64,000 nt of DNA, taken from the IMG/VR virus record IMGVR_UViG_3300030329_003387. One strand, given 5' to 3'. Below, piece by piece: positions 23,044 to 49,003 of this stretch. Made by a program: the position numbers and the translations under genes. The notes under the pieces are model-generated. The model made no database searches. It saw only the letters and a program-made list of their open reading frames with translations, and had not been told where the DNA came from. Numbering within the stretch: position 1 is the stretch's first letter; each line of letters opens with the position of its first letter. This stretch comes from a virus.

Positions 23044-25521
23044 CTAATCTGTAGTTCTATAACCTTGAGTATATAAAGTTGCATCCCAATTACCGCTGGA
23101 TTTTATGGAAGGAATAACTAGATCCATTGTTCCGCTAGATATGGTTCTCCCAACAGTTACCATGTCCGCACTATTATTAGTATTTACAATAGGCTTTCCA
23201 CTAAACCTTTTACCCTTAACCAAAAATTGTGGATCATCCGGCTGCATATATAGATTCATTGAATCATTATGTTTATACTCCGAAGGACCAAGTAAATATA
23301 GCTTTGTAGTATTGACCCCACTTTCCGTTGTCTTTACTGATAACGGCATAGTAGCTATAGGCTTCTTACCTTGAATAAACTGTGGAAAATTGATATTGAA
23401 TTTTGCAGGATCAATTTTAGGGAATGCTAGGTTCATTCCTACTTCTGCAACACCAGTAGGAGCTTCTGGTATTATCAAAAGGGGCATAGTTTTTTGTATG
23501 TATGGGTAAATATTTACGCCACCCTTAGTTTCTAAGTTCAAGTTATTATTTGCATAATAAACCTTACCGCCGATAAACAGCGTTTTTGTCATTTTTTCAA
23601 TAGCGCCGAGAAGACTTAAGTTCATGCTGTCATTAATTGTTACGCCAGCATTAGCACTAAGATAGCCATGACCTGTATCACCCATACTGGTTTTGGCATC
23701 TTGATTTATGACTAGCGGCATACTCTGTGTAGCTTTGTCAGTAAATACCGTTAATCTAAGATCGCCTGAAGCTTTCGCTTTCAAGCCGCCATCGACAAAC
23801 AATGGAAGGTCAACGCCATTTCCGGGAGATAAGGGATTTCCGGCAACGGTTAGTTGTCCATCAATATTGTTGTACTTGTTATATCTGTCAAACCCTGTGT
23901 ATCTTATCTTTGTTGAGTAAACTTTAAATTCAGCATCATATGGATGGTCGTACTCTGGGTAGAATACTGTAAGGTTAAGTTTATGTTCTCTAAAGTCTTC
24001 TCTAAAAGAATTTCCATTTTGATAGAAGTTGCTGACCCCATCTAATGGAGCTTCAAAGGTAATCTTTTGCTTTTCCCCAGAAGGAACCATAATCCCACTA
24101 GGAAACCAATTCAAACTTTTATATTTATTTATTAAAAGTTCATGTTCTTTATGCAATAACGCGGCTGAAAACTTAGCTCCACTTGGGTGATTTGTACTGT
24201 TCTCTACCCATACATCTACAGCAACGGTATCAAGTTGGTGGAAGGTAGGAGGTGTTTCTTCTATCCTAACACTTAGAACAGATGACACAGCGTAGTTTGA
24301 ATTGCCCCAAAGATTTGTGTCATAAGCTCCACCTAAAGCTTTTTCGCTATTACCTGAAGCTACAGTAAATTCAATATAGTCTTTGTCTTGAGCGTCAAAA
24401 GCCCCACTAAATAAACCAGCCTTAAAAGCAGCTCCGGTTGGCGCAGAATAACTTTTTATAATATCTGTAACGCCAAACGTATGATTATAAAACTTACTAA
24501 CCTCTTCGTCGCTAAAAGTCTTGTTACTAATACCTACTTCGTCTACCCATCCGGTATAACCACGTTCAGATATGGCAAACCCTCGTTTACCTAAAATTAT
24601 GTCAGTATTATCAGCTCCAGTTACGTCCCTGCTAAAAGTATTGGACTCACCTTCAATTTTACCGTTTACATAAATCTTTAATCTTGACTCGCCAGAAGCA
24701 AAAACTCCAACAACATGTGCTGGATATTTGTATTCTTGATAGTTCTTTGCTGACTTTGCTACAAAAGCTGTGTTAAGACCAGAAACGTTTCCATCAGAAC
24801 GTATGTAGAACTTGCCGTCAAAGTCACAGCCTAGAACAAATTTAGCTGGATTTTCTTTGTGCTGAGCGAGAATAACGGTATCACTTATATCGCCACTGGG
24901 TAATATTTTAGAGTAAACCGTAAAGCCCTTTGCGTCACTTAGACTGACGCCGCTACCTAAATTAACATTGGCTCTTTCAGAAAGGAATAGACATCTTTCT
25001 TGTATAGCTTCTCGACCTACTATACCTACGAGATCTCCGGCCTTTTGCCATACAGCAAAACCGTCTCCAGCAGAGTCTCCATCGGCAGTACCGGAAGAAC
25101 CACCACCAACACCTGCGGTACATGGGCCGGAAACAACACCACCCATATAACCAGCTCCGTCAGGTGGATCTGTACATCCACAAGTAGCGTCGTATGAATC
25201 AGGTTGATCTCCACATAGGTTTGAATATAAAAACCATTCAGCCCCATCCCACATCCAAGCGCAACCCTCTGGGTCACAACCCAGTCCACTGGCATTAGTG
25301 GATGTGCCTTTTTTAGACTTTACAACAGGAGAGCCAGAATACAGACCGCTACCCTCAAGAGGCATGTAAAGTTTATTAAACTTCCTTACAATCTCTTTAT
25401 TGTAACTCCCTCGCCAGTATCCGAATTCTCTGTTTACACCACTAGGAAATATTTCTCTTTCCTCTACGTGGGCAACACTTCCGAATATGACTAGGCCCAT
25501 ATTTCCTGAAGAAGCGGTCAT
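23044..25521 (-). CDS. Tail protein with LamG/concanavalin A-like lectin domain
   Basis: HVVGVF...LKIYVNG...IILGKR...YTGWVDEVGISNKTFSDEEVSKFYN; C-terminal MxL repeats. Confidence 0.7.
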   Translation of the reverse strand: MTASSGNMGLVIFGSVAHVEEREIFPSGVNREFGYWRGSYNKEIVRKFNKLYMPLEGSGLYSGSPVVKSKKGTSTNASGLGCDPEGCAWMWDGAEWFLYSNLCGDQPDSYDATCGCTDPPDGAGYMGGVVSGPCTAGVGGGSSGTADGDSAGDGFAVWQKAGDLVGIVGREAIQERCLFLSERANVNLGSGVSLSDAKGFTVYSKILPSGDISDTVILAQHKENPAKFVLGCDFDGKFYIRSDGNVSGLNTAFVAKSAKNYQEYKYPAHVVGVFASGESRLKIYVNGKIEGESNTFSRDVTGADNTDIILGKRGFAISERGYTGWVDEVGISNKTFSDEEVSKFYNHTFGVTDIIKSYSAPTGAAFKAGLFSGAFDAQDKDYIEFTVASGNSEKALGGAYDTNLWGNSNYAVSSVLSVRIEETPPTFHQLDTVAVDVWVENSTNHPSGAKFSAALLHKEHELLINKYKSLNWFPSGIMVPSGEKQKITFEAPLDGVSNFYQNGNSFREDFREHKLNLTVFYPEYDHPYDAEFKVYSTKIRYTGFDRYNKYNNIDGQLTVAGNPLSPGNGVDLPLFVDGGLKAKASGDLRLTVFTDKATQSMPLVINQDAKTSMGDTGHGYLSANAGVTINDSMNLSLLGAIEKMTKTLFIGGKVYYANNNLNLETKGGVNIYPYIQKTMPLLIIPEAPTGVAEVGMNLAFPKIDPAKFNINFPQFIQGKKPIATMPLSVKTTESGVNTTKLYLLGPSEYKHNDSMNLYMQPDDPQFLVKGKRFSGKPIVNTNNSADMVTVGRTISSGTMDLVIPSIKSSGNWDATLYTQGYRTTD

Positions 25522-25532
25522 TAATTATTCCT

Positions 25533-28500
25533 TTAGGCAGTCCCTTCTATATCCATTCTTGGCATATCTGGGAACTGTCTTTCTATGAAGCTATTAATTC
25601 CCCTACTAACTTCTCGTCTAATTTTTCTTTGCATTCCTCTGCTCATTTCTCCGTCATCAGTAGGCTCACCATTATGGTTCACACTTACTATAACGTTCAT
25701 GTCTTCAATTTTGTGCGACATTTGTATTCCGCCCTTGAATAATTCTTCAAGTCTCTTGACAGAGCTGTCAAATGAACCTACAGCGTCAGTAAAGGCGGAC
25801 GAATCTAATCTGTACATATTAGTTCCGCCTGTAACTTCACCCTCACCGCCACCAGCCAAGTAGTTGGTTCCTCTAGATTTTTTACTTCTATTGTTAGTAT
25901 GTCCAGCGCCCATGCTATTAATAGACTTGAGAGTTTCTATACCTACAGCATCTACAGCAGCTTTTCTTACAACAAACTCTCCCGGTGTTAACATTGCAGG
26001 AACTGTGTCTGTTCCCATAGCTGGACCACCAGTATTAAACAACGAAACAAAACCGCCTTTAGCATATCCTCTATTTTTAGCTTCTTTTTTGTAAAATTCA
26101 GCAAGTTCATCCTTTAGTTGGTTTCTAGATTTTCCACTTGGATTTTTACTGGCGGTGCGACTCTGACTCATTAAATGGTCGTAATGTCTAGTCAGAACTT
26201 CATTACCTTCTAAAACCTCATCAAGAAATTTTTGAGGTACACCTCTGTTTGAGAGGGTCTTTTTCACTCTCGATTGTTTCATAGCTATTTCTTTTTTAGC
26301 AGCTTCAAGAGCTTCTCGGCTACCATACACGTTATCCCAATCATGTATTGCTTTCGGTCCTGAGTCAGGTATCGCGTCTTGTTTCTTTAATTCATCTAGA
26401 GCTGCTCCTCCGCGAAGTTGCTCACCTTCCATTGCTAGCCTTTTGTTCATCGCTGCCTGTCTTCCGGGAGAGATAGGACGACCTGCATACTGTTCTTGTA
26501 CCTGTTTAAGTGTAGGTCTTGGTTCTTTCGGTCCTCTTGTCAGTTTCTGGGTTTTTCCAACAACAGCATTTGCCGGAGTGTAAGGTTTTTTACCCGGCTG
26601 CATAACAGCGTCTTTTGCTTCTACTCCTGTATCCATTCTTTCCATAGTTTGAGCAACTTTGATGTCTTCCAGCATTTTATTTGGAAGAACTTCTTTTCCT
26701 ACGGGAGAGACTTTCTCTTGCGTCTTACCTCGCGGACGATTCAACATATCTTGCTTTGTTACTGTCGGATTGAGATCTTCCATTGCTTGAGCTTCATTTC
26801 TTCTTCTTGCAAGGGCGCCTTCAGGATTTTCAGCTCCTCTTGTTTGAATTTGATCTCTAAAGTCTTTCTGGCCAGCTTTAAATTTGTTTAGATAATCTTC
26901 AGCTATAGCATTTTCTTCTGCTGCGTTCTTTGCAGCTGCTTCTGCTGCTTCTTCTGCTGCTTCTTTAGCTTCTTTTTGGTCCTTGTCAAAGTCTTTCCTC
27001 TTTTGCTCTAACTCCTTTGTCTTATCGCTTTTGCGCAAGAATTTATCTTGCGTTTTGCTTAATGCAATTTCTGCATCAAGTTTAGCTCGCTGTTCTGCTG
27101 GAGTCAGTTCACCTACTGATTGCTTTGCAGCATCATCTGCCTGTTTTGTAACTTGTGCCTGTCTTCTAGTTACAACCTGTATCGTGTCGTCTACTTGGTC
27201 AATTGCGGCAAGACTAAAAGTCTCTCCAGCTCCATATTTTCCAGCGGCTGCGGCTGCTGGTTTTGGAGTGGTTGCGGCTGCTGGTTTTGGAGTGGTTGCG
27301 GCTGCTGGTTTTGGCTTAACAGCTGTAACGGGTTTTTTAGGGACGGTATCGGCAGGAACTTTCCAGCGACCAACGGTGACAGCTTCTTTGGCCTGATTCA
27401 TTATATCGTCCGCTATTCCAAGCGCTTTTTGAGCAACTTCCTCAACTGTGTCCATTAAACTACCAACATTAAGAGAGCCGGGATGATTGAACATCTCTTC
27501 TTTTGCTTTTTGTAGCCAATCAATAGTGACTTCAGGATCACCTCCCGGTCTTTTTACCTTCTTAGCTTCAAGTTCTGCTAGTTTATTTTTACCTTGCTGT
27601 ATTCGCACTTCGTCTGCGGCACTAAACGCATTAGGCTTTGCTCCCTTCGGTACTTGACCCGGAGGAAGATTCTTTATCATCGCTTGTTTTTGTGCGGTGG
27701 TAAGAGTCGCGTCATTTATAATATCATCATAAGTTCTTGCAGCAAAACCTAGACCCGGCTTAGTTTCAAATGTTGTTTTTCCTTTACCGGGGATTATATC
27801 TGTATAGAAACTCGATTGTGGATCAAACGCGCCGAAATCACTTTTGTATGTTTTACCAGTTTCTGGATCGATGTATGTCTTTCTTGCTGGCCCTTGCCCA
27901 CGAGCTTCAACATAATTTCGCATGTCGGCAGTAATTGCCTCTGGCCTCTTCGGTATTTCAGGCGCGTCGGGTGTAAATTTACCACGATTGAGAGGATCAA
28001 ACGTTCCGGGTTCCATACCTTGAAGTAGATCATCAACTGCTGCGTCTGGTTTTACAGGACCTTTAGGTGCAGGTTTTGGTTTAGTCAATTCTCCTAAACC
28101 CGGCTTTTTACCAGTCAATATGTCCATCGAAGATTGACCTAGAAGTTTATTTACTTCTGCGCTGTGCCTAGCTTGCGTTGCTCTTTTCTGAGCCTGTTCT
28201 GCAATATCATTCGCAAACGACTTAGCTTTTTTAACAGTAGTACTGACGACATTTTTTGTTACTTTTGCGCCGACTTTACCTACTTTGCTTCCTGCCATTC
28301 CCGGAACAGCAACTTCGGCAAGGTCCAATATTCCCTGTCTGTCTTTGGCTTGTTGCTCAGTTAAACCGCCCTGCATAGCGCGTTCGACAAACTTATCTTC
28401 ATACTCTTCACCCGTAAATGTAGAGGTAAGAGCATCACCAAACCCCTGCAAACTAGCCATGAAGCCAGCTCTGTCATCCTCGCTAACAATAGCGGGTATC

Positions 28501-31500
28501 GCCTGCATTCCAGTTTGGATTAGGTTGGGGACGGCCATCATAGCGCCCTCTACAACATTAACACTCTTGCTTTGCTCAATACCTTCTCGTGTTATGTCTT
28601 TGACGCTGGCGCCTTCCTTAGCAAGATGTGTTGACCGAGCAACGAACGCATTGATAGAGTCTTCTGAATGACCAGCCTTACGCATTCTTTCAGCTTCATC
28701 AAGAACGGCATTTAATGCATGAGCTTCAATTTTTTCATCAATGAATTCTCCCATCATTCCCATGCCGCTCTTAAGAGCATCGCCAGTAAGGTCCCACGCC
28801 CCTAAAAGTATGTTGCCACCGATGTTGCCAGTTCTGTCAATATTTTCCTTCATATAGTCGCGTTTTTGAGTCTCGGTATCTACCTTACCCCTTGCGGCCA
28901 CGGCTGTACCCATCGTTCCCATCTGAGGATTAACTTTTACAACTTTTTCAAAATATTCTCTCCAAGGCTTTGCTGCTTGTAATATTTTTCTTTGACGATC
29001 AAACTCTGCTTTGTCATTACCCATTCCTGTTGGTAAATTCATAAGATTTGAATCTATTTCAGATGATTTCATCTGTCTCCACCAACTACCAGCTTGCGTT
29101 TCTATAATGTCAAGAACGCTCTTGTCTTGTAAGTTTACCGGCGGGGATTCATATGGGCTAATTATCCCATCTTTATCTATATCGCGAGGATCAAATGTAC
29201 CCCCAAAATGCTCATTAAGGGTTGCATAAGTAACAGGCTTTTCTGGAATTTCATAGGCTTTTGCTGCCGCAAGAAGTTTTTCATAGCTTGCATTAATAGC
29301 CTCTGCAAACTTTTGATCTTCTGTGCTAGAAGGGAACATTCCCATTTTTCCAAAATCTTCAACCTGCTTGCGTACTAAAGGATTATCAGGATCTACTGCG
29401 ATACCTTCAGTGGTTGCACTTTTTCCAACTTGACTTTCTTTATAACTTGTTCGTAACTTATAGTAAGCTTTACCTAATTTTTGTTGTTCAATAGCTGTGT
29501 ATTTTGCGTTTTCTTTGTCTACTCTAGCTCTTTCTTTTACATCTAAAGCATAAAGATCTTCCATAACATCCGTAGGAAGGACTGGGAAGGTTTCAATTTG
29601 TGTATTTCCCGGACCTTCTTTAGTAGATCTAAAGGTAAATGCATTTTCTATTTTTGAAGCTTTGCCGCGATAAACACCTTGGTTATAAGATTCTCTATGA
29701 GCAATAAAACTATCAAGAAGAATGTTCAAATCCTCTTCATTTTTTTCTGCTATATTTTTTTCTAGATCTGCTATTCTCTGACCAAAACTTCCTCTCAATC
29801 TGCTTTTAAATGGCGCTTTGTCTTGTATCATTTGATACCCAGCAGGACTTCTTTTAAATCCTTGTCCGGGTTGATAACTTGCGTATTGAGTAGCTAAAGC
29901 TCCGTCATCTCTTGCCGCTTGTAAAAATGCTCCATGATTAAATTGTGCTAAATAAGGTATGGCGTTGAGATTCGCAAAAACTTGCTTTTGATCTTTTTCT
30001 GATAATTGATGACTTACGTTACCTTGACTATCTACAAGAGGTGCGTCTTTGAACCTATCTTTATCCTTTCCAATCTCAAGATCGCCACTAGCTTCTAGAC
30101 TATCTAAAAGCTTATAGAGTGATCCGGCTTCTGTCATTGGTTGTATAAATCTAGCAGCCTTTTTTAAATCTTGTTCTGCAAAAAACTCAAGCATCCTTTT
30201 GTCTCTTGCGTAAGATTTTAGGTCGCCGGGAGCTTCACCTCTACCGTAAGTTTGTATCCATTGTTTAGAATGGTCTTTATCAGGAGGATTAAGTCTAGAC
30301 GGAGGCCAGTTTTTAATTGTTCGGTTATTTTCGTCTGGGTGACTTTCAGCATGTTCTTCAGCTTCAGCTAAGTATGCGCCAACAAGCCTCTTTGGATCTA
30401 CTAAACCACCTTCAGCTAAGTATTGAGTCTTGCCGCTATTGAGAGCTTGTAATGCTCCCATGTTTTTCTGAGCAGCTTTTCTATTAACAACAAACTCGCC
30501 GGGTGTTAGCATGGCCGGTACTGTATCTGTACCCTTTGGAGCAAATATAGTTCCACCATCAGCTTTAGTTACTGGCTTTACTTGGAACGGACGAGCGTTT
30601 TCTTTAAACTCTGCACTCCAACCTTTCCAAGCCATTGAGAAGCTCTCTTTTACTTGCTTCTGCATAAGACCTAAATGTCTTGCCACTGTTCCACCACCAA
30701 AGAACAGATCCATCATTTTTCGTTGACCTTCTTCAACTTTTCCATAACCCCATTCGTTAGCCGGTAAATTCGCCCAACCGTTAAGTCTGCCTATCAAACC
30801 ACGCTGGCCGATGAAAGTCATAGCTTTTTTAGGGTCTCCGGTGGTGTTACCGCCACCTAACAAACCTTGCATTGCGGCTATGCCTTGGTTTTTAGGGTTA
30901 GCTCCGGGTCCAACGGCTCCAGTTACGCCTTTTACACTAACGTCTCGTATTTTGCCTTTGGATTGGTGTACTGCATCCCAACCTAGACCTAACTGCTCAG
31001 AGATTCTCTCTTGATTAATTTTAAGACCACTAGCGTCCATTCCGTTAAGAAATCCGCCTCTAATCATGACTTGTAAATCATGACCAAGACCTTTAAAGAA
31101 TGGAAATACCATATGTGCGGTATTTTCATCAAATTCATAATTTTGCAGCCATCGTCTGTTAATACCTGCATATTTAGGCATTGCTGACTTAATTCTATTC
31201 TTCATCATAAAGTTGGTAACTTTATTCATATGGGAAGCAAGCCTGCTTCCGGTAAGAATAGGACTTTTCATAAACTTAAAGTTTTCATTTACGTCGTCTT
31301 TAAGTTCTTTGTTTGCTAGCGCGTCTTTTTCTTGCTGATCTTTTACAGCCTCCTGAGCATCTTCAACGTCTCCTGCGCCCATGCCCTGTATAGCTACCCC
31401 ACCAAAAAGTGCGGTTTGAAGTGCGTCAAGAGCTGTACCATATCCTGCGGAAGTATTGTTTGCCTTTATAAATTTATGGTAATTGACAAAAATTTCACGC

Positions 31501-34500
31501 ACGCGATCAATTTGTTTACTTCTTTCAGTTGCACCCGCTTGAATAGCCGCAACATCAGGGATTGACCCCCAACTGCTTGGGTTTGCCGGATTAAACTCAA
31601 AGCCCCTAAAAGAATTCGCTCCGAAACCTGTATCTATCAAATGTTTTTTAACACCACCTGCTATTTGTTTTAATCTACTTGTATATCCAGTTCCTGTGGT
31701 TTGTTCCCATATGTTTGTTCCTCCGCTCACAAAACCCCTGTACCAAGAATCTGGATGCATTTCTTTAACAACGTCGTCTATGACGTTTAAATTATTCCCA
31801 GACTTTAATGCTTCTTGAATTGCACCGACTTTTTTAGAAAGGTATGATCTAGCGGAAGTACCATAAAGTTCTGCAACGGCTTCTTGTTGGAGTTTATGGG
31901 CATCTTTAAAAGCTTGTAAGGGGCCTTTAACTTTTTCGCTGAAGGCAAGAGCTGTGTTAAGACTTCCAGCTACATCAAGATTTTTCCATGTACCAGAGGG
32001 GTAAGCAGCACTTAATAGAGTGCTTTTGTTCTTTTCGCTACTAAACCAGTCCTGTATTCGACTACGACTATAAACTTGACCAGTGTACGCAGGGAACAGC
32101 TCTATATATTGACCGCCTTGACCTCTAACGCCGGAGTTTTGCCCCACAAAACGTTCATGTTTAACAGCCTGCATCCATGCAGGACGAATCTCATAAGTAT
32201 TGTCTACGTTTTTTATAAACCTCCTCATTCGGTCAACTTTTACGTGTTCAGGACCGAAGTATTTTTCGTCTATCTCCTGCTTAAGTCTTACATAATCCCC
32301 ACCTGCGGAATTTAGTCTACCGCGATCACTAAAATCGACTTCACTACCTTCTGCTAAGAAATTTTGAGGGGTTGCAACTCCCATACCGTTAGCTTGTATT
32401 ATCTTTCTGTATGTTTCTCCATATTTTCTTGCATCAAAACCAGCAATTTGCTTGGTAAATGCATTCGCAGTTGGTCTCTGGAGATTTTGAGCCAAGTCAG
32501 GGATTGCTCGAAGGAATATAGGATTAGGCGCCCATCTTTCCAATCCAGCGCCAGTTAATCTGTAAGCCTGTTTGCCTATCTGATAAGAAGTGCCGCTATT
32601 CCAAGCGGAATTAAAACCCGGAGGAAAAGCAGTAAAATCTACGTCTTCTGAAAGGTACGAACCTTCGTATGATTTTTTGTCTTGGATGCCTGTGGTTATT
32701 TGGTTTCCGAGCTGATCTTTAGTACCCATAATAGCATTCCGAACAGACTCCTTTAACGCTCCAAAAGCGCCTTGCATAAATGGAGTATGATACTTGAGTA
32801 ACTGATCTTGTTTAATTGCAGCGGCAGGACCAACCCCATTAAACATTACGACTCCACCACCAGCCAAGTAGTTAGTTTTACCACTATTAATAGATTGGAG
32901 TGCGGCCATGTTTCTTTTTGCAGCTTTTTTATTAACTACAAATTCGCCGGGAGTTAACATGGCTGGAACAGTGTCTGTTCCTTTAGGCGCAAATACACTA
33001 CCACCAGTAGCAAATACAGGTACGTTGCCACCTGCGCCTCCAGCAGGTCCAGCGCCTCCAGCAGCAGCAGCACCAATTGCCGCCATATTAGCTGCTATAG
33101 AATTATTGGTCTTATTTATCGTTACTCCTAATCTAACTATATCGTCGCTTAGACTTTGCCAAGTTTCACCTTGAGGTATGTTAGCTAGTGACTGACTAAG
33201 AGCATCAAAGTTATTTACTAGCGTATCTGCAAATTGACCTATACCAGCAGAGTTAAGAGTACTCATGGCTTGATTAATAACGTCACCCTGAATATTCATC
33301 TGTTCCTGAGCAAACTGCGTGAGGGTTCTTTGTAAGAATGCTTGTACCTCACTAGCTGTCATAGGAGCTTGACCTTGTCCCTGACGACTCGCTATCTCAC
33401 CCGACAAAGCACTACGAAGTGAAGCGGCAATCTTATTTCCAACATCTACTCCAAAATTTCGTCTGAGATCTTTAGCTATATTGTTTATAGCGTTCTGATT
33501 TGCCGCTCCAGCTCCTCTACCCTCTACTGTGTCTGCGAACTGGTTGGGAGCAATTTGGTATTGTGCAGCCGCTGCAAATCTTTGACGAGTCTGTCTCGCT
33601 TCCCTTAACCCTCTAATGCTTTCTATATTGACTCTAATCGCATTAAGAACTCTAGGATCTTCTACAGGAAGTCCCATGCTTCTAATTTTTTGCAGCTCTT
33701 TAAATCCATTTTCAGCTGCTACTCTATTACCTTTAGCTTCAGACAGTTCTCTTTCTAAAGTTCTCTGTTCTTGTCTTAAAAAGATATTCTTTAGTTCGGT
33801 TGTGAGTTGCTTATGCAAACCAGCTATTGTTTTAGCAAGATCTTTTCTATCTTCTTTCATACCGACAAGTAAAGCCATCTGAGCTTGTTCAGCTTGCTTT
33901 TGTATCTTTATCTGCTCTTGAATTAAACGCTCTTGTTCTGAAGTAGCCCCCCTAATTGCCTTTTTCATTTCGTCGGGAAGAGGGCCAAACACACGTTCCA
34001 ATTCAGCAATGGTAAGTTCTGCCTTAGCTTGCTTTCCGGTCATTCCATTGAACATGGCAATTTCAGAGAACTGATCGAGAATGCTAAGAACTTGTGGTCG
34101 CATTTGATCCGGTATACGACCTAAACCGCCCTGCATAGCCATAGCGGTTGCTCGCATGGCTTTCATTATATCTACACGAGCTTCATTAGTGGCAAAAGCA
34201 AATTTTTCACCGGCACTAACTAATTGAGATCTTTTTAATTCTTCTTCGGCCAATCTCTCTGAGATAACAGCTAGTCTTTGTTGAACATTTGAATAGTTCT
34301 CAAGAACCATTTTTGTTTTTGCAAACTGTTCTTTTAATCTAGCATTTTCATCTAATAGCTTTTTCTGACTCTCAGTTAGCTGACCAGTAACTGCTGCTGG
34401 ATCAAGACCAAAACTTTCTAACTCAGCATTGCTCTTTCTAATTTTTTCTTTTAGTCTTATAAACTCTGTACTGACAACACCAATATTAGTACCAAATCCG

Positions 34501-37500
34501 GCAACAGCAGTTCCCGCTAACAAGAAGTTTTGTTGGGTAGCAAATGACTGTCCAGCAGCCTGTTCGTTAGCAGGTTGTTTTCTTAGTTTTCTAATTCTTT
34601 CAGCATTTTCATACTGTAGCTGAAGTATGTTTTGTTGTTGTTGAACAATCTTTAATTCAAGCTTTGTCCTAAGATCATAAGCTTTTGCAAGTCTAGCATT
34701 AGCTTTGTCAATAAACTCAGCAGCCCTTTGGAATGCTTGTTGAGTTTCAGACATACCTTTTGTAAGGTCTCTTACTACACCCTGTATGTCTTCTCTAATT
34801 CTACCGGCAAACTTACCTTCTCCGCCCTCTCCCATTTCAGCAGCTGCCTGAACGCGACGAACAATCATCTTTCTAAACTCATCGCCTATAATCCCTCCGG
34901 GATCAGCAGCCATCAATTTTGCTTCTATAATTTCAGAAGCTCTTGCTCCACCAATACCTATTTCACCGGCAGCTTCTGTTAGTATGTTAGGAAGAAGGGA
35001 ATTAAGGGCGGCAAACTGCTTTAAGTCCTTACCGAGCGCCACGCCTGAACTTCCTAAAGTAGCGGATATGTTATCTACATGTCGGTTAAAGGCGGAAAAA
35101 TCAAGTATGTTTGATATGTCATCAAAGTTTGGAGCTATTTTGCCTAGTGCGGCTTGGCCAAATGTGTTATTTATAGATTGTTCGGCATTTGTTAGGGCGT
35201 TATCAAAAGCAGTCAATCTATGTTCTATCGCAGCAAAAGCACTAACTGCATCTCTGGCTCCGTACAGAACTTTATTTAATTGTCTTATTGATTTTATTTG
35301 AGCTTCTTGAGCGGCTTTTGATCTTTTTCTTACTTCAACCCCATCTTGTATTTCTTTTTTCATCCTCTCTAAGCTAACGCCACTTAGTTCAGAGAAACTG
35401 TTTAACGTATCAGTTCCAACAATTTGTTCTAGTTCTGCAAAGCTATCTACGTTAGCTGCCATTCTATTTATAAAATCGGCAAATCCCGGAATTGATTTTT
35501 GAACCAGTCCATTAAACGATTCAAGTTCTTCAACTGTAGTAATTTCAGCAAACGATCTGTCAAGACGATCTATTCCGTCAGACACACTAGCAGCAATCGC
35601 TCGACCACTAGCTTTACCTTCAGTAAATAACTTTAACTTTCTTTCTACATCAGATAAAGCGTCTCCAAGCCGTAACGATCTTACTTTTGCATTAAAATTT
35701 ATCAAAGCTTCAGAAGCCGCACCCTCAGCATCTGCAAGCGCTCCTCCACTTACGCCACCTACTACGCCACCGATTATTCCCCCCGCTATAAGACCCGGAA
35801 TTCCGAAAACCTTTGCGCCTATAGCGCCGCCAGTAGCTGCGCCGCTCAATGCTCCCCATCCCGCACCTGTAGATTCAGCTTCTTGTGCTGCACCCTGCGT
35901 AACTCTAGCTCTAGCTTCTTCTGTAGCCGATTGTGTTTTATAACCTCCTGCCTCAACACTTTTCATGGCAAAATCCTGCATTTTTTTAGCAGCATTTTCC
36001 ATAGCTTTATGATACGCGAAGAAAGTTCCAGCAATAGCAGTAATACCAAGTACCTGACCGCCGCTTATTCCAATCTTACCGGCCATCTCTGTAAGTTTTT
36101 CACCAAACAACATGTGTGCGGCTGTAGCCATCATTAGAGTTTGGGTGAGGGCGTTCAGTCCCTCTTTCATCATATTGATTTCGCCATCAACTTCCTCGAT
36201 GTTTGCAGCAAACATTGGAAGTAGCATTTCTAAACCAAACATTAGACCTAAAGCTCTAGCAGAAGGGTCGGCTTTTCCACCTTCATTGAATTTTTGTACG
36301 CGAACTCCGCCTACAGCACCACCTTTAGCAAAGCCTCTAGGAGTTTCCCCAAATCTGTTAGCGCGATTTAGATTTCCGTAACCAATTCTTTGAGCGGACT
36401 TTCTGTTGATTACAAATTCGCCGGGAGTCAAGAGGGCAGGAACGGTATCACTACTTCTAGGCAATCCCCCTCCAGCATTTCGTCTTTTGCGAGGACGAGA
36501 AAAAATTGAAGCTTTGCCTATTTGTCTTTGTTGTTTTTTGTCAGCAGTTCCCGTGGGGTCATATTTTGCAGTTGTAAATTCTTTTTTGGATTTAGCTTCC
36601 CAAATATCTACTGAACCTAAATCTATAGTATCTCTTTTGCTAGTAAGCGCACCCTCTGGACCTACATCTTTAAGCTTTTTGGTTTTATCAGTGAGGTGTT
36701 GTCTAAGAGCTTTGTTTAGTATAGATTTAGTTCTTTCTCTTCCCCCTTTAAACTTAACTTCTCCATATTTTAAACCCTTTCCCTTGAGGTCCATAGGAGC
36801 ATTTCCGGGAATTAACTTCATTCTAGATTTTTTAGCTGCGACTGCTTCAAACATATCAGCAGAAGCTTTATTGTTTAAGGCTAGAGTTCCAAGAACTTGT
36901 TCTCGTTGAGCGCCTTTATACATCTTCTCAACATCAGCTCTAGAAATCTTATTCCTATTTACGATTCCTTTGACTTTATCACCGCCCTGTAATCCATCAA
37001 ATACACTCTTAGCGCGCTTAAACGGTTCATCAAAGCCCAATGTTTTAATTGAAGGCTTCTTCCTAGCCATTTGTTCGACAGTTCCGCCTGACGCGTACCT
37101 GTTCATCTTTCGTAATCTATCAGTTCCAATAGCTTTAACAGAACTTTTTCTTATTACAAATTCTCCGGGCGTTAGCATTGCCGGAACAGTATCTCTATTA
37201 CCCCTTCCGGGAACCATACCACCACTAGCAAATCTGTTAATTCTACCGCCCTGATTTCTACCTCTACCCATACCTCCAGCGAGGAAAGCAACACCTTTAG
37301 CAGCGGATAGAGCTGTCAACATAGGAATCATAGGGCCAAGAGTTTCTGCAACGGTAGCAAGAGCTTTAGCTAATTCCAAAGCCATCTTAACCATAGCTTG
37401 CATACCGCTAGAACCCATAAAGGTACGGAACAGAGCTTGGAACTCTTCTTTGACCTTAACAACCTGAACCGCAACAGATTGTTGTGCTTTGGCGGCATCT

Positions 37501-38597
37501 CTAGCTAAACTAGTACCGCCAGACTGCGCAACATTGAGAGCTTTTTGCGCAACGCCAAATTGTTGGATAAGAGGTATAACTTTAGAGACTTGCCTAAAAC
37601 CACCAAGCTGCTCAACTATTTGAGAATATCTAACATCTCTTGGGTCGAGATCTTTTAGGGCGATGTTTAATCTACGTACAGCTTCGTAAGGGCCTACAAA
37701 ATTTCCAGCAAGGTCTTGAAGTTCTACACCGACCTGTCTTAGAAATTGTATAGTTTTTGGACGTTGGATTCTGGTAAAGATAGTTCTAAAGCCGGTAGCA
37801 ATCGTTTCTGCCGTTTCACGAGTCGTAGAACGTACAGCAGTAAACATGGCCTCCAGTTCCATCAGTTGTCCACCCGCAGCCTTAAACGCGCCACCAGCAC
37901 GCCTAATAGCTACACCAATGTCTCCAGCCTCAACAGCGAAGTTTGCGGCTAAAGCATTAATTCTTCCAAGCTCACGTTCTAAGTTTGATGCTTCTATATT
38001 AAACTGTCGCATTGCAGCGATAGCAGTTTCTGTAGTAGAAGTAATATCATCAAAAGTAGCAGCGAGTGTGGTTTTAGCAAGTGCATCTAAAGATATTCTA
38101 ACTTCCCTTGCTGTCATACCAGTTTGGGCTAACACCCTACTAGTCTTCACAAGAGAACTAGAAGATACACCTAAAGAAGTAGATAGTGATGTTATTTCAC
38201 GCTCTAACCCCTTTAGTGAGTTCATGGTTTTGCCAGTAACTTGACTGACTTTTACCATTTCTCTTTCAAAAGCAATGGCAGAAGTTACACCATCACGAAT
38301 AGTATTTACAAAGGCATTAATGATCGAACGAGCTAAGTCATACTTCATTAAGTACGATAAAGCTCCTCTAAAGCTAGAACCCATTCTCTGGGCGCTTCTT
38401 CCAGCTGCTTTAGCATTGTTGCTAACGTTTTGTAAATTTTGACTAACTGTTTGAAGTTGGCTAGCCGTGCCTTTGGGCAAATTTACATTTACATTAGCGT
38501 TTACGCCTTTAAGCTGGTTGTTTATATTTCTAACTACATTTCTCATGTTTGGCGCTTGAATCGCCAGAGTTGAAGTTAGTACAAAACCTTTTGCCAT
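25533..38597 (-). CDS. Tape measure protein, 4354 aa, with five DTVPAMLTPGEF cassettes and cargo domains
   Basis: N-terminal TP901-type TMP core (AFEREMVKVSQVTG...LAQTG...ETIATGFRTIFTRI); TM/glycine-zipper segments; long coiled coil; lies after tube and chaperone genes. Confidence 0.9.
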   Translation of the reverse strand: MAKGFVLTSTLAIQAPNMRNVVRNINNQLKGVNANVNVNLPKGTASQLQTVSQNLQNVSNNAKAAGRSAQRMGSSFRGALSYLMKYDLARSIINAFVNTIRDGVTSAIAFEREMVKVSQVTGKTMNSLKGLEREITSLSTSLGVSSSSLVKTSRVLAQTGMTAREVRISLDALAKTTLAATFDDITSTTETAIAAMRQFNIEASNLERELGRINALAANFAVEAGDIGVAIRRAGGAFKAAGGQLMELEAMFTAVRSTTRETAETIATGFRTIFTRIQRPKTIQFLRQVGVELQDLAGNFVGPYEAVRRLNIALKDLDPRDVRYSQIVEQLGGFRQVSKVIPLIQQFGVAQKALNVAQSGGTSLARDAAKAQQSVAVQVVKVKEEFQALFRTFMGSSGMQAMVKMALELAKALATVAETLGPMIPMLTALSAAKGVAFLAGGMGRGRNQGGRINRFASGGMVPGRGNRDTVPAMLTPGEFVIRKSSVKAIGTDRLRKMNRYASGGTVEQMARKKPSIKTLGFDEPFKRAKSVFDGLQGGDKVKGIVNRNKISRADVEKMYKGAQREQVLGTLALNNKASADMFEAVAAKKSRMKLIPGNAPMDLKGKGLKYGEVKFKGGRERTKSILNKALRQHLTDKTKKLKDVGPEGALTSKRDTIDLGSVDIWEAKSKKEFTTAKYDPTGTADKKQQRQIGKASIFSRPRKRRNAGGGLPRSSDTVPALLTPGEFVINRKSAQRIGYGNLNRANRFGETPRGFAKGGAVGGVRVQKFNEGGKADPSARALGLMFGLEMLLPMFAANIEEVDGEINMMKEGLNALTQTLMMATAAHMLFGEKLTEMAGKIGISGGQVLGITAIAGTFFAYHKAMENAAKKMQDFAMKSVEAGGYKTQSATEEARARVTQGAAQEAESTGAGWGALSGAATGGAIGAKVFGIPGLIAGGIIGGVVGGVSGGALADAEGAASEALINFNAKVRSLRLGDALSDVERKLKLFTEGKASGRAIAASVSDGIDRLDRSFAEITTVEELESFNGLVQKSIPGFADFINRMAANVDSFAELEQIVGTDTLNSFSELSGVSLERMKKEIQDGVEVRKRSKAAQEAQIKSIRQLNKVLYGARDAVSAFAAIEHRLTAFDNALTNAEQSINNTFGQAALGKIAPNFDDISNILDFSAFNRHVDNISATLGSSGVALGKDLKQFAALNSLLPNILTEAAGEIGIGGARASEIIEAKLMAADPGGIIGDEFRKMIVRRVQAAAEMGEGGEGKFAGRIREDIQGVVRDLTKGMSETQQAFQRAAEFIDKANARLAKAYDLRTKLELKIVQQQQNILQLQYENAERIRKLRKQPANEQAAGQSFATQQNFLLAGTAVAGFGTNIGVVSTEFIRLKEKIRKSNAELESFGLDPAAVTGQLTESQKKLLDENARLKEQFAKTKMVLENYSNVQQRLAVISERLAEEELKRSQLVSAGEKFAFATNEARVDIMKAMRATAMAMQGGLGRIPDQMRPQVLSILDQFSEIAMFNGMTGKQAKAELTIAELERVFGPLPDEMKKAIRGATSEQERLIQEQIKIQKQAEQAQMALLVGMKEDRKDLAKTIAGLHKQLTTELKNIFLRQEQRTLERELSEAKGNRVAAENGFKELQKIRSMGLPVEDPRVLNAIRVNIESIRGLREARQTRQRFAAAAQYQIAPNQFADTVEGRGAGAANQNAINNIAKDLRRNFGVDVGNKIAASLRSALSGEIASRQGQGQAPMTASEVQAFLQRTLTQFAQEQMNIQGDVINQAMSTLNSAGIGQFADTLVNNFDALSQSLANIPQGETWQSLSDDIVRLGVTINKTNNSIAANMAAIGAAAAGGAGPAGGAGGNVPVFATGGSVFAPKGTDTVPAMLTPGEFVVNKKAAKRNMAALQSINSGKTNYLAGGGVVMFNGVGPAAAIKQDQLLKYHTPFMQGAFGALKESVRNAIMGTKDQLGNQITTGIQDKKSYEGSYLSEDVDFTAFPPGFNSAWNSGTSYQIGKQAYRLTGAGLERWAPNPIFLRAIPDLAQNLQRPTANAFTKQIAGFDARKYGETYRKIIQANGMGVATPQNFLAEGSEVDFSDRGRLNSAGGDYVRLKQEIDEKYFGPEHVKVDRMRRFIKNVDNTYEIRPAWMQAVKHERFVGQNSGVRGQGGQYIELFPAYTGQVYSRSRIQDWFSSEKNKSTLLSAAYPSGTWKNLDVAGSLNTALAFSEKVKGPLQAFKDAHKLQQEAVAELYGTSARSYLSKKVGAIQEALKSGNNLNVIDDVVKEMHPDSWYRGFVSGGTNIWEQTTGTGYTSRLKQIAGGVKKHLIDTGFGANSFRGFEFNPANPSSWGSIPDVAAIQAGATERSKQIDRVREIFVNYHKFIKANNTSAGYGTALDALQTALFGGVAIQGMGAGDVEDAQEAVKDQQEKDALANKELKDDVNENFKFMKSPILTGSRLASHMNKVTNFMMKNRIKSAMPKYAGINRRWLQNYEFDENTAHMVFPFFKGLGHDLQVMIRGGFLNGMDASGLKINQERISEQLGLGWDAVHQSKGKIRDVSVKGVTGAVGPGANPKNQGIAAMQGLLGGGNTTGDPKKAMTFIGQRGLIGRLNGWANLPANEWGYGKVEEGQRKMMDLFFGGGTVARHLGLMQKQVKESFSMAWKGWSAEFKENARPFQVKPVTKADGGTIFAPKGTDTVPAMLTPGEFVVNRKAAQKNMGALQALNSGKTQYLAEGGLVDPKRLVGAYLAEAEEHAESHPDENNRTIKNWPPSRLNPPDKDHSKQWIQTYGRGEAPGDLKSYARDKRMLEFFAEQDLKKAARFIQPMTEAGSLYKLLDSLEASGDLEIGKDKDRFKDAPLVDSQGNVSHQLSEKDQKQVFANLNAIPYLAQFNHGAFLQAARDDGALATQYASYQPGQGFKRSPAGYQMIQDKAPFKSRLRGSFGQRIADLEKNIAEKNEEDLNILLDSFIAHRESYNQGVYRGKASKIENAFTFRSTKEGPGNTQIETFPVLPTDVMEDLYALDVKERARVDKENAKYTAIEQQKLGKAYYKLRTSYKESQVGKSATTEGIAVDPDNPLVRKQVEDFGKMGMFPSSTEDQKFAEAINASYEKLLAAAKAYEIPEKPVTYATLNEHFGGTFDPRDIDKDGIISPYESPPVNLQDKSVLDIIETQAGSWWRQMKSSEIDSNLMNLPTGMGNDKAEFDRQRKILQAAKPWREYFEKVVKVNPQMGTMGTAVAARGKVDTETQKRDYMKENIDRTGNIGGNILLGAWDLTGDALKSGMGMMGEFIDEKIEAHALNAVLDEAERMRKAGHSEDSINAFVARSTHLAKEGASVKDITREGIEQSKSVNVVEGAMMAVPNLIQTGMQAIPAIVSEDDRAGFMASLQGFGDALTSTFTGEEYEDKFVERAMQGGLTEQQAKDRQGILDLAEVAVPGMAGSKVGKVGAKVTKNVVSTTVKKAKSFANDIAEQAQKRATQARHSAEVNKLLGQSSMDILTGKKPGLGELTKPKPAPKGPVKPDAAVDDLLQGMEPGTFDPLNRGKFTPDAPEIPKRPEAITADMRNYVEARGQGPARKTYIDPETGKTYKSDFGAFDPQSSFYTDIIPGKGKTTFETKPGLGFAARTYDDIINDATLTTAQKQAMIKNLPPGQVPKGAKPNAFSAADEVRIQQGKNKLAELEAKKVKRPGGDPEVTIDWLQKAKEEMFNHPGSLNVGSLMDTVEEVAQKALGIADDIMNQAKEAVTVGRWKVPADTVPKKPVTAVKPKPAAATTPKPAAATTPKPAAAAAGKYGAGETFSLAAIDQVDDTIQVVTRRQAQVTKQADDAAKQSVGELTPAEQRAKLDAEIALSKTQDKFLRKSDKTKELEQKRKDFDKDQKEAKEAAEEAAEAAAKNAAEENAIAEDYLNKFKAGQKDFRDQIQTRGAENPEGALARRRNEAQAMEDLNPTVTKQDMLNRPRGKTQEKVSPVGKEVLPNKMLEDIKVAQTMERMDTGVEAKDAVMQPGKKPYTPANAVVGKTQKLTRGPKEPRPTLKQVQEQYAGRPISPGRQAAMNKRLAMEGEQLRGGAALDELKKQDAIPDSGPKAIHDWDNVYGSREALEAAKKEIAMKQSRVKKTLSNRGVPQKFLDEVLEGNEVLTRHYDHLMSQSRTASKNPSGKSRNQLKDELAEFYKKEAKNRGYAKGGFVSLFNTGGPAMGTDTVPAMLTPGEFVVRKAAVDAVGIETLKSINSMGAGHTNNRSKKSRGTNYLAGGGEGEVTGGTNMYRLDSSAFTDAVGSFDSSVKRLEELFKGGIQMSHKIEDMNVIVSVNHNGEPTDDGEMSRGMQRKIRREVSRGINSFIERQFPDMPRMDIEGTA
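25845..26066 (-). repeat. TMP cassette 5 (YAKGG/FNTGG...DTVPAMLTPGEF...YLAGG)
   Basis: Read from the translation; lies about 100 aa from the C-terminus. Confidence 0.9.
27249..27314 (+). repeat. 24-bp tandem repeat, 2.75 copies (encodes PKPAAATT linker in TMP)
   Basis: tgcggctgctggttttggagtggt repeated exactly. Confidence 0.9.
30405..30566 (-). repeat. TMP cassette 4 (KADGG...DTVPAMLTPGEF...YLAEGG)
   Basis: Read from the translation; nearly identical to cassette 3. Confidence 0.9.
32853..33014 (-). repeat. TMP cassette 3 (FATGG...DTVPAMLTPGEF...YLAGG)
   Basis: Read from the translation. Confidence 0.9.
36318..36480 (-). repeat. TMP cassette 2 (NAGGG...DTVPALLTPGEF...FAKGG)
   Basis: Read from the translation. 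Confidence 0.9.
37083..37232 (-). repeat. TMP cassette 1 (FASGG...DTVPAMLTPGEF...YASGG)
   Basis: Read from the translation. Confidence 0.9.
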
Positions 38598-46729: not shown

Positions 46730-49003
46730 TTAGGATTCTAATTCTGAAATTCTTTGTTTAGCTGCATCAAGCTCAGCTTTAAGCTCTTTGACGGCAGCGA
46801 CTAAGTAAACATTGATTATATGGTTATCAAGGGATTTTACATCCTCCACAATCACTTCATGTGTATCATGATCTTTTAGGTCATGTCCGCTATTAATAAC
46901 AGCTTCTGGAAAATGTTCTTCAACTTCTTGTGCTATAAAGTTGTAGTAGTTAGTATCAGATGTAACTCCAGCTGTACAATCACAATAGCTTTCTGTATAT
47001 TTAAATTTGACTGGTCTCAATGAGTCTATTTTATCCAAAGCATTTTCTATAGTGCTTACGTCTGTTTTAACTCTTTGGTCTGATACTACAGTCCATACAG
47101 AACTTATTGGTTTTGCAGCAGAATTACTACTTAACTGTAATTCATATGAAGGGGTGGTATTCAATCCGACTTTTCCGTCGTCTGTTATTTTTATACCTTC
47201 ATTTCCTCCGTCATTACTTATCCAGTTATTGTTTAGCAATATGTTGCCTTGTACACTAACCTCATTAAACACGCCAGATCCACGGAATTTAGTAGAGTCT
47301 GCATAAACCTCCATTTTGTGAAGGTTACTTCCTTCCGTATCAAATCTAGTTATGTTTAATTTGGCATTTGTGTCTGCGGCGCTAGTACCCGCCTGTATGT
47401 AAGCAGTATTATTTGTTGATCTTGAACCAACAAACCTTAGAGCTGAATTACTTCCACCAAATGGGTCTCCAATAATCATCGAGGTATTTTCACCATAAAC
47501 ATGCAACTTGTCCTTGCCTAGAACAGTAGAATGATATGGAGAGTCGGTATTAATACCAACGTTTCCTCTTCTATCAATAGTTAAATGAGAAGGAACAAAA
47601 GAACCTGAGTTATTAATCTTCAAAGAGGAGTTAGAAGACTTATAGCCTATAGTGGCCCAATGTCCCTTTTCATTGTCGGTAGAGGCATAACTTAATATTC
47701 CACTACCATCTGTATTTTTACCTATGTGTATCGCTGTGTTGGTATTTAGAGCATTTTCCAAAGCAAAGGTTGTAGGAGTGCCGCTTCCAGAAACATGCAG
47801 ATTGTGATTAGGTCTCCAAGTATGCTGAACACTAATTCCTGAGTTACCTATACCAACATTACCGTTGGTGGAATCAATAACAAGCGCTTGCGCTCTGGGT
47901 ACTTGAGCGCTTTTTGTGTCTATAACCAGCCTGTGTTTGTCGCCTTCCCATCGTATGTCAGCATAATTCGATAAGTATGACCTACCATCTCCAGAGCCTA
48001 TATACAAATGAGAATCGCCAGTTTTTGATCCTATAGATACAGCATGACCATCTCCACTAGCTGTTATTCTTCCAAGGCTATCTCCAACCTCAAAACGCTC
48101 TTTAGGATATCTATTACCAACGGATGCATACCCACCACTATCTATAACAAAAAGAGCTTCGCTAGATCTAACAGATCCGCTTCTGTCGGTGTCAGAGCCT
48201 ATAAAGAAGTAACCGACACCACTACCTGCGCTGCTCACGCCGATACCATAACCTAAAGTTATGTCATTTTCGCTATAATCTGTAGTCCCTGTTTTGTACT
48301 TGTATATTAAAGTGTTGGCTAAATCGTTTGAGGCTATTTTAGAATCAAACCTCAAAGCAGCCCCAGACGAACGAACATGAAGTGAGTTGAGAGCATTTGT
48401 AGTACCAACGCCAACTTTACCAGTGCTGCCTAAAGACATTCTTGGTGTAAAGATTGAAGTGCCGCTTGCCCAGTGACCAAAGTACATAGACTTATTGTCA
48501 GGAACGGCTATATTTCCAACAGCGTGGTCTAAAACCAAATTAACACCTGAGCCGTGTATAGACTTCAGGTGCATTGCTGGGTACTTGGTTCCACTGCCAT
48601 AGACAAGGACTTGGCCCTTTTCGTCTATGGCCATTCTCTTAACTGGACCTCTACCTCCAGTTGAAGAAACAACTCCAGAACTAGCAGTCTTGAAAACTAT
48701 AATACCATTATCTCTATTAGTGGTATCATCTCCACTGATAAAATTTATAGTGGCAACGTCTTTGCCAGACCACTGACCTTTTATTGTTGAAATATTGCCG
48801 TTAGCAGTTACTATACTGCTGTCTCTTAGGTCTAAATCATTCCTAAAATATACGTCAGTACCGCTAGCTGTAATTGGTATGACGGAGTCAACCATATTTT
48901 TTAGGGTAGTTCTAAGCGTTTCCGCTGTGATACCGCCAGCTTGATTATCTGCTAAGTCTGCATCTATTTTAGTCTTTAGACTATTTTGCGTATATTCTGC
49001 CAT
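46730..49003 (-). CDS. Fibre/spike protein with C-terminal intramolecular chaperone (peptidase S74)
   Basis: GNVGIG/GKVGVG fibre repeats; SDQRVKTDV...FIAQEVEEHFPEAV...LVAAVKEL coiled-coil end. Confidence 0.85.
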   Translation of the reverse strand: MAEYTQNSLKTKIDADLADNQAGGITAETLRTTLKNMVDSVIPITASGTDVYFRNDLDLRDSSIVTANGNISTIKGQWSGKDVATINFISGDDTTNRDNGIIVFKTASSGVVSSTGGRGPVKRMAIDEKGQVLVYGSGTKYPAMHLKSIHGSGVNLVLDHAVGNIAVPDNKSMYFGHWASGTSIFTPRMSLGSTGKVGVGTTNALNSLHVRSSGAALRFDSKIASNDLANTLIYKYKTGTTDYSENDITLGYGIGVSSAGSGVGYFFIGSDTDRSGSVRSSEALFVIDSGGYASVGNRYPKERFEVGDSLGRITASGDGHAVSIGSKTGDSHLYIGSGDGRSYLSNYADIRWEGDKHRLVIDTKSAQVPRAQALVIDSTNGNVGIGNSGISVQHTWRPNHNLHVSGSGTPTTFALENALNTNTAIHIGKNTDGSGILSYASTDNEKGHWATIGYKSSNSSLKINNSGSFVPSHLTIDRRGNVGINTDSPYHSTVLGKDKLHVYGENTSMIIGDPFGGSNSALRFVGSRSTNNTAYIQAGTSAADTNAKLNITRFDTEGSNLHKMEVYADSTKFRGSGVFNEVSVQGNILLNNNWISNDGGNEGIKITDDGKVGLNTTPSYELQLSSNSAAKPISSVWTVVSDQRVKTDVSTIENALDKIDSLRPVKFKYTESYCDCTAGVTSDTNYYNFIAQEVEEHFPEAVINSGHDLKDHDTHEVIVEDVKSLDNHIINVYLVAAVKELKAELDAAKQRISELES

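Follow-up and report, generated by a model that had tools for sequence, protein, structure and literature searches.

In the virus record IMGVR_UViG_3300030329_003387 (IMG/VR), a giant tail tape measure protein (TMP) carries, between two short repeated cassettes, a small and very basic domain that is predicted to adopt a PD-(D/E)xK nuclease fold with a full catalytic set, namely E584, D603 and E613-x-K615, plus K629. A large clade of giant TMPs, that of the 64,000-nucleotide stretch analysed here (the window) among them, has this domain as a built-in part at a fixed position, and in the window's TMP it lies beside nearly all membrane-active segments. On balance, we favour the view that amino acids (aa) 533-683 form an integral nuclease-fold module that is delivered at genome entry and acts as a metal-dependent phosphodiesterase; along with their DNA, the many uncultured phages of this group would then probably bring a nuclease into the cell. 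Known TMP roles are those of ruler, channel former and, occasionally, cell-wall hydrolase carrier. A conserved nuclease-fold module with an intact predicted active site is seemingly undescribed, and our literature search turned up no paper on a TMP containing a nuclease-fold domain. The central features are as follows.

25533..38597, minus strand: TMP gene (P0001), one uninterrupted open reading frame (ORF) of 4,354 aa
37599..38198, minus strand: PhageMin_Tail (TP901-type TMP) core, aa 134-333, from Pfam
37074..37235, minus strand: cassette 1, aa 455-508, FAxGG..DTVPAMLTPGEFVIRK..YASGG, from the cassette hidden Markov model (HMM)
36549..37001, minus strand: PD-(D/E)xK-like domain, family A, aa 533-683
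36846..36848, minus strand: E584 codon, helix alpha-1 glutamate of 'FE', conserved in 38/38, in model helix 45-59
36789..36791, minus strand: D603 codon, 'PMD', start of beta-2, 38/38
36753..36761, minus strand: E613-V-K615 codons, ExK on beta-3, E in 37/38, K in 33 and R in 5, in model strand 78-83
36711..36713, minus strand: K629 codon, conserved Lys on the helix after beta-3, 37/38
36333..36485, minus strand: cassette 2, aa 705-755, from the cassette HMM and alignment

A conserved putative active site in a basic segment

P0001 is a TP901-type TMP: PF10145 (PhageMin_Tail) matches aa 134-333 (E = 2.4e-25; 90.1 bits against a cut-off of 33.2), several PHROG tape-measure families match as well, and the gene is of great length and stands in a tail gene block. 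A sequence-only reading of the window had proposed a nuclease-like segment at 36481-37082, citing the strings ADMFEAV, PMDLK and GEVKFK. All three are present, on the minus strand. The plus-strand translation of this interval was meaningless and was set aside; the reverse complement corresponds to aa 506-706 of the TMP ORF, in which ADMFEAV, PMDLK and GEVKFK start at aa 580, 601 and 612, respectively. The segment, which sits between cassettes 1 and 2, is also as basic as had been stated, with an isoelectric point of 10.3 and 24% Lys plus Arg, about twice the share found in the other inter-cassette segments. The bare motif E-x(10-30)-D-x(6-20)-[DE]-x-K occurred in 77% of shuffled versions of the segment, or in 5% if PxD was required. 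The motif alone is no better than chance, and its significance arises only from conservation in homologues.

Such homologues were found by way of the cassettes. Using aa 440-800 as query, we retrieved 2,871 giant proteins sharing the cassettes (2,394-7,620 aa), nearly all with PF10145, and an iterative search over the best 120 of them revealed a domain family, here called family A, at the same place as the window's domain. Alignment A1, comprising ten domain copies with eight genes fetched as loci, contains sequences 14-24% identical to the window's copy. E584, D603, E613 and G661 are invariant in it, and F583, K615 and K629 nearly so. A cassette profile scan of IMG/VR yielded more than 596 stretches, and enlarging family A over the IMG/VR cassette loci and the 120 proteins gave 38 distinct domains. 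In these, E584 and D603 are found in 38/38, E613 in 37/38, K615 as 33 Lys and 5 Arg, and K629 in 37/38, with no other column close, counts to be read with the caveat that members were gathered with a profile that itself rewards the E/D/ExK/K columns. The sequence-only reading had staked itself on conservation of its E/D/ExK residues among homologues, and E584, D603, E613 and K615 are near-invariant.

Direct searches found little outside the giant TMPs. Queried with the 200-aa segment, phmmer searched 1.84 billion representative proteins and gave no match at E <= 0.001; family A is too divergent for a single-sequence search and was reached only by iteration over the cassette-fetched giant TMPs. 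At E <= 10, Pfam had no family that matched the window's domain, and none of the ten A1 members hit a nuclease family; neither phmmer nor hmmsearch matched the domain to any PDB sequence. A homologue search among proteins of 299-2000 aa, a range that excludes giant TMPs, returned one 661-aa fragment (84% identical), and a profile search among proteins of 83-298 aa revealed no stand-alone form, only two fragments on contigs of 0.5-0.9 kb. Finally, when 50,697 genomes of cultured or deposited phages were searched by tblastn, matches were confined to the N-terminal PhageMin_Tail part, at 22-27% identity (SPbeta group and others), and neither the cassettes nor the domain had a cultured relative.

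The family is nonetheless not a one-off: metagenomes contain thousands of giant TMPs with these cassettes, and most carry family A or a second family, B, in the same slot. Hosts suggested by the titles of metagenome-assembled genomes (MAGs) containing relatives belonged to inconsistent phyla and were not used. Separately, the complete Balneolaceae MAG chromosome OZ245822.1 (3.85 Mb) holds two separate cassette-bearing loci, L107 and L109; these could be prophages of such phages and thereby point to a host.

Predicted fold and resemblance to nucleases

Structure prediction with AlphaFold2 on alignment A1 gave a mean predicted local distance difference test score (pLDDT) of 79.7, with about 90 in the core, and a predicted template modelling score (pTM) of 0.73. 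The model runs from an N-terminal strand and two helices through helix 45-59, strands 62-63, 72-73 and 78-83, and helix 91-110 to strand 125-136. In model numbering, E52 (E584) lies on helix 45-59, D71 (D603) just before strand 72-73, E81-x-K83 (E613/K615) on strand 78-83 and K97 (K629) on helix 91-110. The modelled order thus matches the canonical alpha-beta-beta-beta-alpha-beta succession of a restriction-endonuclease-like fold, and the residues stand where that fold has them. A second model, covering aa 455-755 and built from a different 8-row alignment, showed the same core order at low overall confidence (pLDDT 61, pTM 0.42), too uncertain to read the pairing of the two cassettes. The alpha-beta-beta-beta core whose absence was to count against the sequence-only reading is therefore predicted in both models, followed in each by the further helix and strand.

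Comparisons with known nucleases point in the same direction at lower significance. Foldseek searches of PDB and BFVD returned nothing at E <= 0.001, the best PDB hit being an arenavirus cap-snatching endonuclease (E = 0.23). The sub-significant structure matches nearly all belong to one fold, that of the PD-(D/E)xK nucleases, and the closest compact look-alikes are Hjc and VRR-NUC. An independent protein-language-model look-up pointed to the DpnI, PDDEXK_16, ThaI, SmaI, HinP1I, PvuII and PDDEXK_14 clusters, which we take to be restriction-type or PDDEXK-named nuclease families, with scores of 0.83-0.86 that fall below the reliability line of 0.9. In the ESM Atlas, one family B member met with low recognition, unreliable matches and no nuclease signal.

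Taken together, the models, the look-ups and the residue conservation make it highly probable that aa 533-683 have a PD-(D/E)xK fold. The nuclease assignment made from the sequence thus holds as regards the predicted core, the conserved E/D/ExK residues and the weak look-alikes, but gains no significant Foldseek match. Curated families, including VRR_NUC (PF08774) and Hjc (PF01870), did not reach the HMM threshold, and since no curated family matched, we file the domain at the superfamily (fold) level only, as an undescribed family, which merits its own profile in domain databases.

The archaeal Holliday junction resolvase Hjc (PDB 1ob8, 1gef) and the VRR-NUC domain (FAN1, PDB 8s5a; 4qbn), both minimal PD-(D/E)xK nucleases, are the domain's company at the fold level. 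The domain has no sequence or profile match to either, and differs from them in an extra N-terminal strand, two extra helices and the additional invariant Lys on the helix after beta-3. Moreover, it is embedded in a 4,354-aa virion protein, whereas Hjc and VRR-NUC are free repair enzymes.

The first slot is fixed, other slots vary

To describe what lies between the first two cassettes across the clade, we extracted the first inter-cassette segment (slot 1) from 178 giant TMPs. Family A was detectable in 49 and family B in 130, so that A or B occupied slot 1 in 156/178. Single-linkage clustering of the segments merged nearly all of them and was abandoned. Family B, seeded from P0068, has the consensus G..FE, FDFp.G, DAKrt and then a later K, and keeps the PD-(D/E)xK pattern as FE / FD / DAK. 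Profile-profile alignment of A and B gave a probability of 90.4% (E = 1.4e-6) and placed the FE, D, (E/D)xK and K of one family opposite those of the other. Many relatives (many loci among L009-L088; for example P0071, P0084, P0024 and L028) contain A followed by B in slot 1, and one (L007, the locus of P0074) has two family A copies, at L007:2148-2645 and L007:2829-3287. The window's TMP has family A only.

Variation was found elsewhere. A PF03496 ADP-ribosyltransferase domain, of the exoenzyme/toxin type, lies between cassettes 2 and 3 in P0119 (aa 923-1135) and between cassettes 1 and 2 in P0121 (aa 1303-1513), and other giant relatives have precomputed SHD1 or EF-hand matches. Slots besides the first hold varied enzyme-like domains, while the first slot is conserved and not swapped. 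The sequence-only reading had described the domain as cargo and suggested looking for relatives that exchange it; this part was not supported. An exchangeable effector should leave unrelated domains in the same slot and stand-alone copies elsewhere. With A or B in most slot-1 segments and no stand-alone homologue, the domain looks like a fixed part of the TMP rather than an exchangeable effector.

Cassettes and membrane-active surroundings

The remaining cassettes and the hydrophobic region map as follows.

32868..33017, minus strand: cassette 3, aa 1861-1910, from the cassette HMM
30420..30566, minus strand: cassette 4, aa 2678-2726, from the cassette HMM
25887..26039, minus strand: cassette 5, aa 4187 to about 4237, from the cassette HMM
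35727..36260, minus strand: hydrophobic and glycine-zipper region, aa 780-957, with 11 GxxxG in aa 911-952, from a Kyte-Doolittle scan

Each of the five cassettes is about 50 aa long, starts with FAxGG, ends with YAxGG and contains conserved GG dipeptides. Giant relatives have 4-8 cassettes each, with very variable spacers. Cassette 1 shows 77% mean identity across relatives whose nuclease-like domains share only 14-24%, which marks the cassette as a strongly constrained element. In the model it forms a beta-hairpin (VPAML / EFVI) and then two short helices, and disordered linkers separate cassette and domain. Searched against PDB chain sequences, the cassette 1 profile matched the TMP of mycobacteriophage Douge at E = 1.1e-9, in two copies, as well as lambda gpH at residues 733-784 (E = 0.0014) and the TMP of Pseudomonas phage JBD30 (E = 0.014). 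By its profile, the cassette is a gpH-type glycine-bounded TMP element of about 50 aa, FAxGG...GEFV...IG..L...YAxGG.

In lambda, residues 733-784 lie inside the glycine-rich region where gpH is processed to gpH* and gpHC at an unmapped cut site, and residues ~690-817 are not resolved in structures (PMC12617516). Only residues 1,658-1,699 of the Douge TMP (gp16) are resolved (PMC13033339). The cassette is thus a widespread TMP element that in lambda adjoins the processing site, which makes excision an idea to test rather than a proven one, and the link to the cleaved gpH region offers a testable handle on the old open question of gpH processing. The likeness to gpH extends to delivery, as gpH is ejected and forms a periplasmic conduit; in contrast, gpH has one cassette near its C-terminus, no enzymatic domain and no known activity (PMC12617516), whereas the window's TMP has five cassettes, in between which lie folded domains.

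The TMP's most hydrophobic stretches (aa 422-442, 780-800, 842-860 and 924-957) bracket the cassette-domain-cassette unit, with the aa 780-957 cluster directly after cassette 2; the sole other stretch is a weak window at aa 1358-1376. Glycine zippers are shared between TMPs and Tde1, a type VI secretion system (T6SS) DNase, which needs its N-terminal zipper to cross the target cell's inner membrane (PMC10240207), and contractile injection systems include TMP-derived effectors with exchangeable functional domains, such as Sle1 (PMC13277306). As in Tde1 and Sle1, a functional module is here coupled to a TMP-type membrane-active segment and expelled via a phage tail or phage-tail-like tube. These two, however, belong to the weaponry of bacteria, have toxin domains that vary and, where toxic, come with immunity partners, whereas the module described here is conserved and resides in a true phage TMP; no immunity gene was found, and none was sought.

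Cell-wall hydrolases within TMPs offer a precedent for an enzyme that is part of the tape measure polypeptide and delivered on ejection. Mycobacteriophage TMPs carry Rpf/M23 motifs. Hydrolase domains also occur within the TMPs of several phages and in the C-terminal fragment of T5 pb2, as cited in PMC12617516. Such hydrolases differ from the present domain in their target, which is peptidoglycan in the periplasm, while the predicted nuclease fold would imply a nucleic-acid substrate.

Proposed function and alternative explanations

In the mechanism we favour, the TMP would exit the tail before the DNA and form a trans-envelope conduit, so that the domain would reach the infected cell at genome entry. 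Inside the narrow (~4-nm) tail lumen, the domain would probably be unfolded, or staggered on its disordered linkers, until ejection and would therefore be inactive up to that point. Once in the cell, it may cleave nucleic acid as a metal-dependent phosphodiesterase, with DNA of the host or other resident DNA as the likeliest substrate. If active, it would be a nucleic-acid-acting enzyme delivered at the first instant of infection, with a bearing on host takeover, superinfection exclusion and counter-defence.

Alternatively, the module might work on the phage's own genome: near the head-proximal (N-terminal) end of the TMP, it could bind or trim the leading genome end in the tail, coupling the DNA to the departing TMP or processing the end on entry. 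We consider this unlikely, even though the domain falls within the TMP's N-terminal 15%, is very basic and is a fixed core feature rather than variable cargo. Its closest compact look-alikes, Hjc and VRR-NUC, are structure-specific DNA enzymes, and contacts between TMP and DNA, in the tail or connector, have been reported for lambda and DT57C (as quoted in PMC13033339; PMC12617516). Invariance of all four catalytic residues, however, would be needless in a pure end-binder, well-studied siphophages do without such a module, and at ~530 aa from the N-terminus the domain is not necessarily at the DNA end. Another concern, that the module is dead or never was a nuclease and serves as a structural spacer or plug, or as a nucleic-acid- or metal-binding domain that merely resembles the fold, with the motif a by-product of a charged conserved surface, draws on the sub-significant similarity scores to real nucleases, the frequency of the motif by chance at this composition, the ExR or D-A-A that replaces ExK in a few relatives, and the family B member without nuclease signal in the ESM look-up. 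We regard it as very improbable, as the columns that stay invariant in both families and in very divergent copies are exactly the four canonical ones, with hardly any other, the topology was obtained in two models, and nearly all structure matches share a single fold.

A further possibility concerns how the domain is released. The sequence-only reading had proposed excision at the flanking GG sites. In this version the TMP would be a polyprotein that is cut at its GG-bounded cassettes, which would set free in the host a soluble nuclease, along with other cargo, to serve attack or anti-defence. The cassettes are indeed far more conserved than the parts they flank, recur 4-8 times in every relative between very variable spacers, enclose an ADP-ribosyltransferase domain in some relatives and match the gpH region near which gpH* and gpHC arise (PMC12617516), and long disordered linkers lie on both sides of the domain. 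Against this, there is no cleavage evidence for these TMPs, no candidate protease was identified among the window's genes, and the lambda cut is put by estimate at about aa 710, which is upstream of the cassette rather than at its GG. In addition, the first slot is not swapped, and the search of proteins of 83-298 aa gave no stand-alone copies, leaving this version distinctly unlikely. A broader form, in which giant TMPs are injected polyproteins whose gpH-like GG cassettes serve as the processing or docking signals long looked for in TMPs, and cutting or unfolding there releases the nuclease and, in relatives, the ADP-ribosyltransferase and other enzymes into the host, is also doubtful; if it were true, the siphophage tail would at the same time serve to deliver several effectors, in a manner comparable to that of a T6SS or contractile injection system.

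Genes around the tape measure gene

The neighbourhood of the TMP gene fits the structural module of a long-tailed phage. Nearly all remaining structural genes of the window had no Pfam or PHROG match. Within the TMP itself, a DNA_ligase_A_M (ATP-dependent DNA ligase adenylation) match at aa 3799-3873 (26979-27203, minus strand), in the last inter-cassette segment, scored 14.9 bits against a cut-off of 26.2 (E = 0.022) and was taken as chance. Upstream of the TMP gene lies a weak tail-tube match, and downstream are LamG-bearing and very large tail-tip genes; a fibre with a Peptidase_S74 chaperone also belongs to the module. The two Pfam-assigned genes are as follows.

23044-25521, minus strand: 825-aa protein directly downstream of the TMP, with a Laminin_G_3 / ConA-like lectin domain (E = 2.6e-11), from Pfam
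46730-49003, minus strand: fibre-like protein of 757 aa with a C-terminal Peptidase_S74 intramolecular chaperone domain (E = 4e-14), from Pfam
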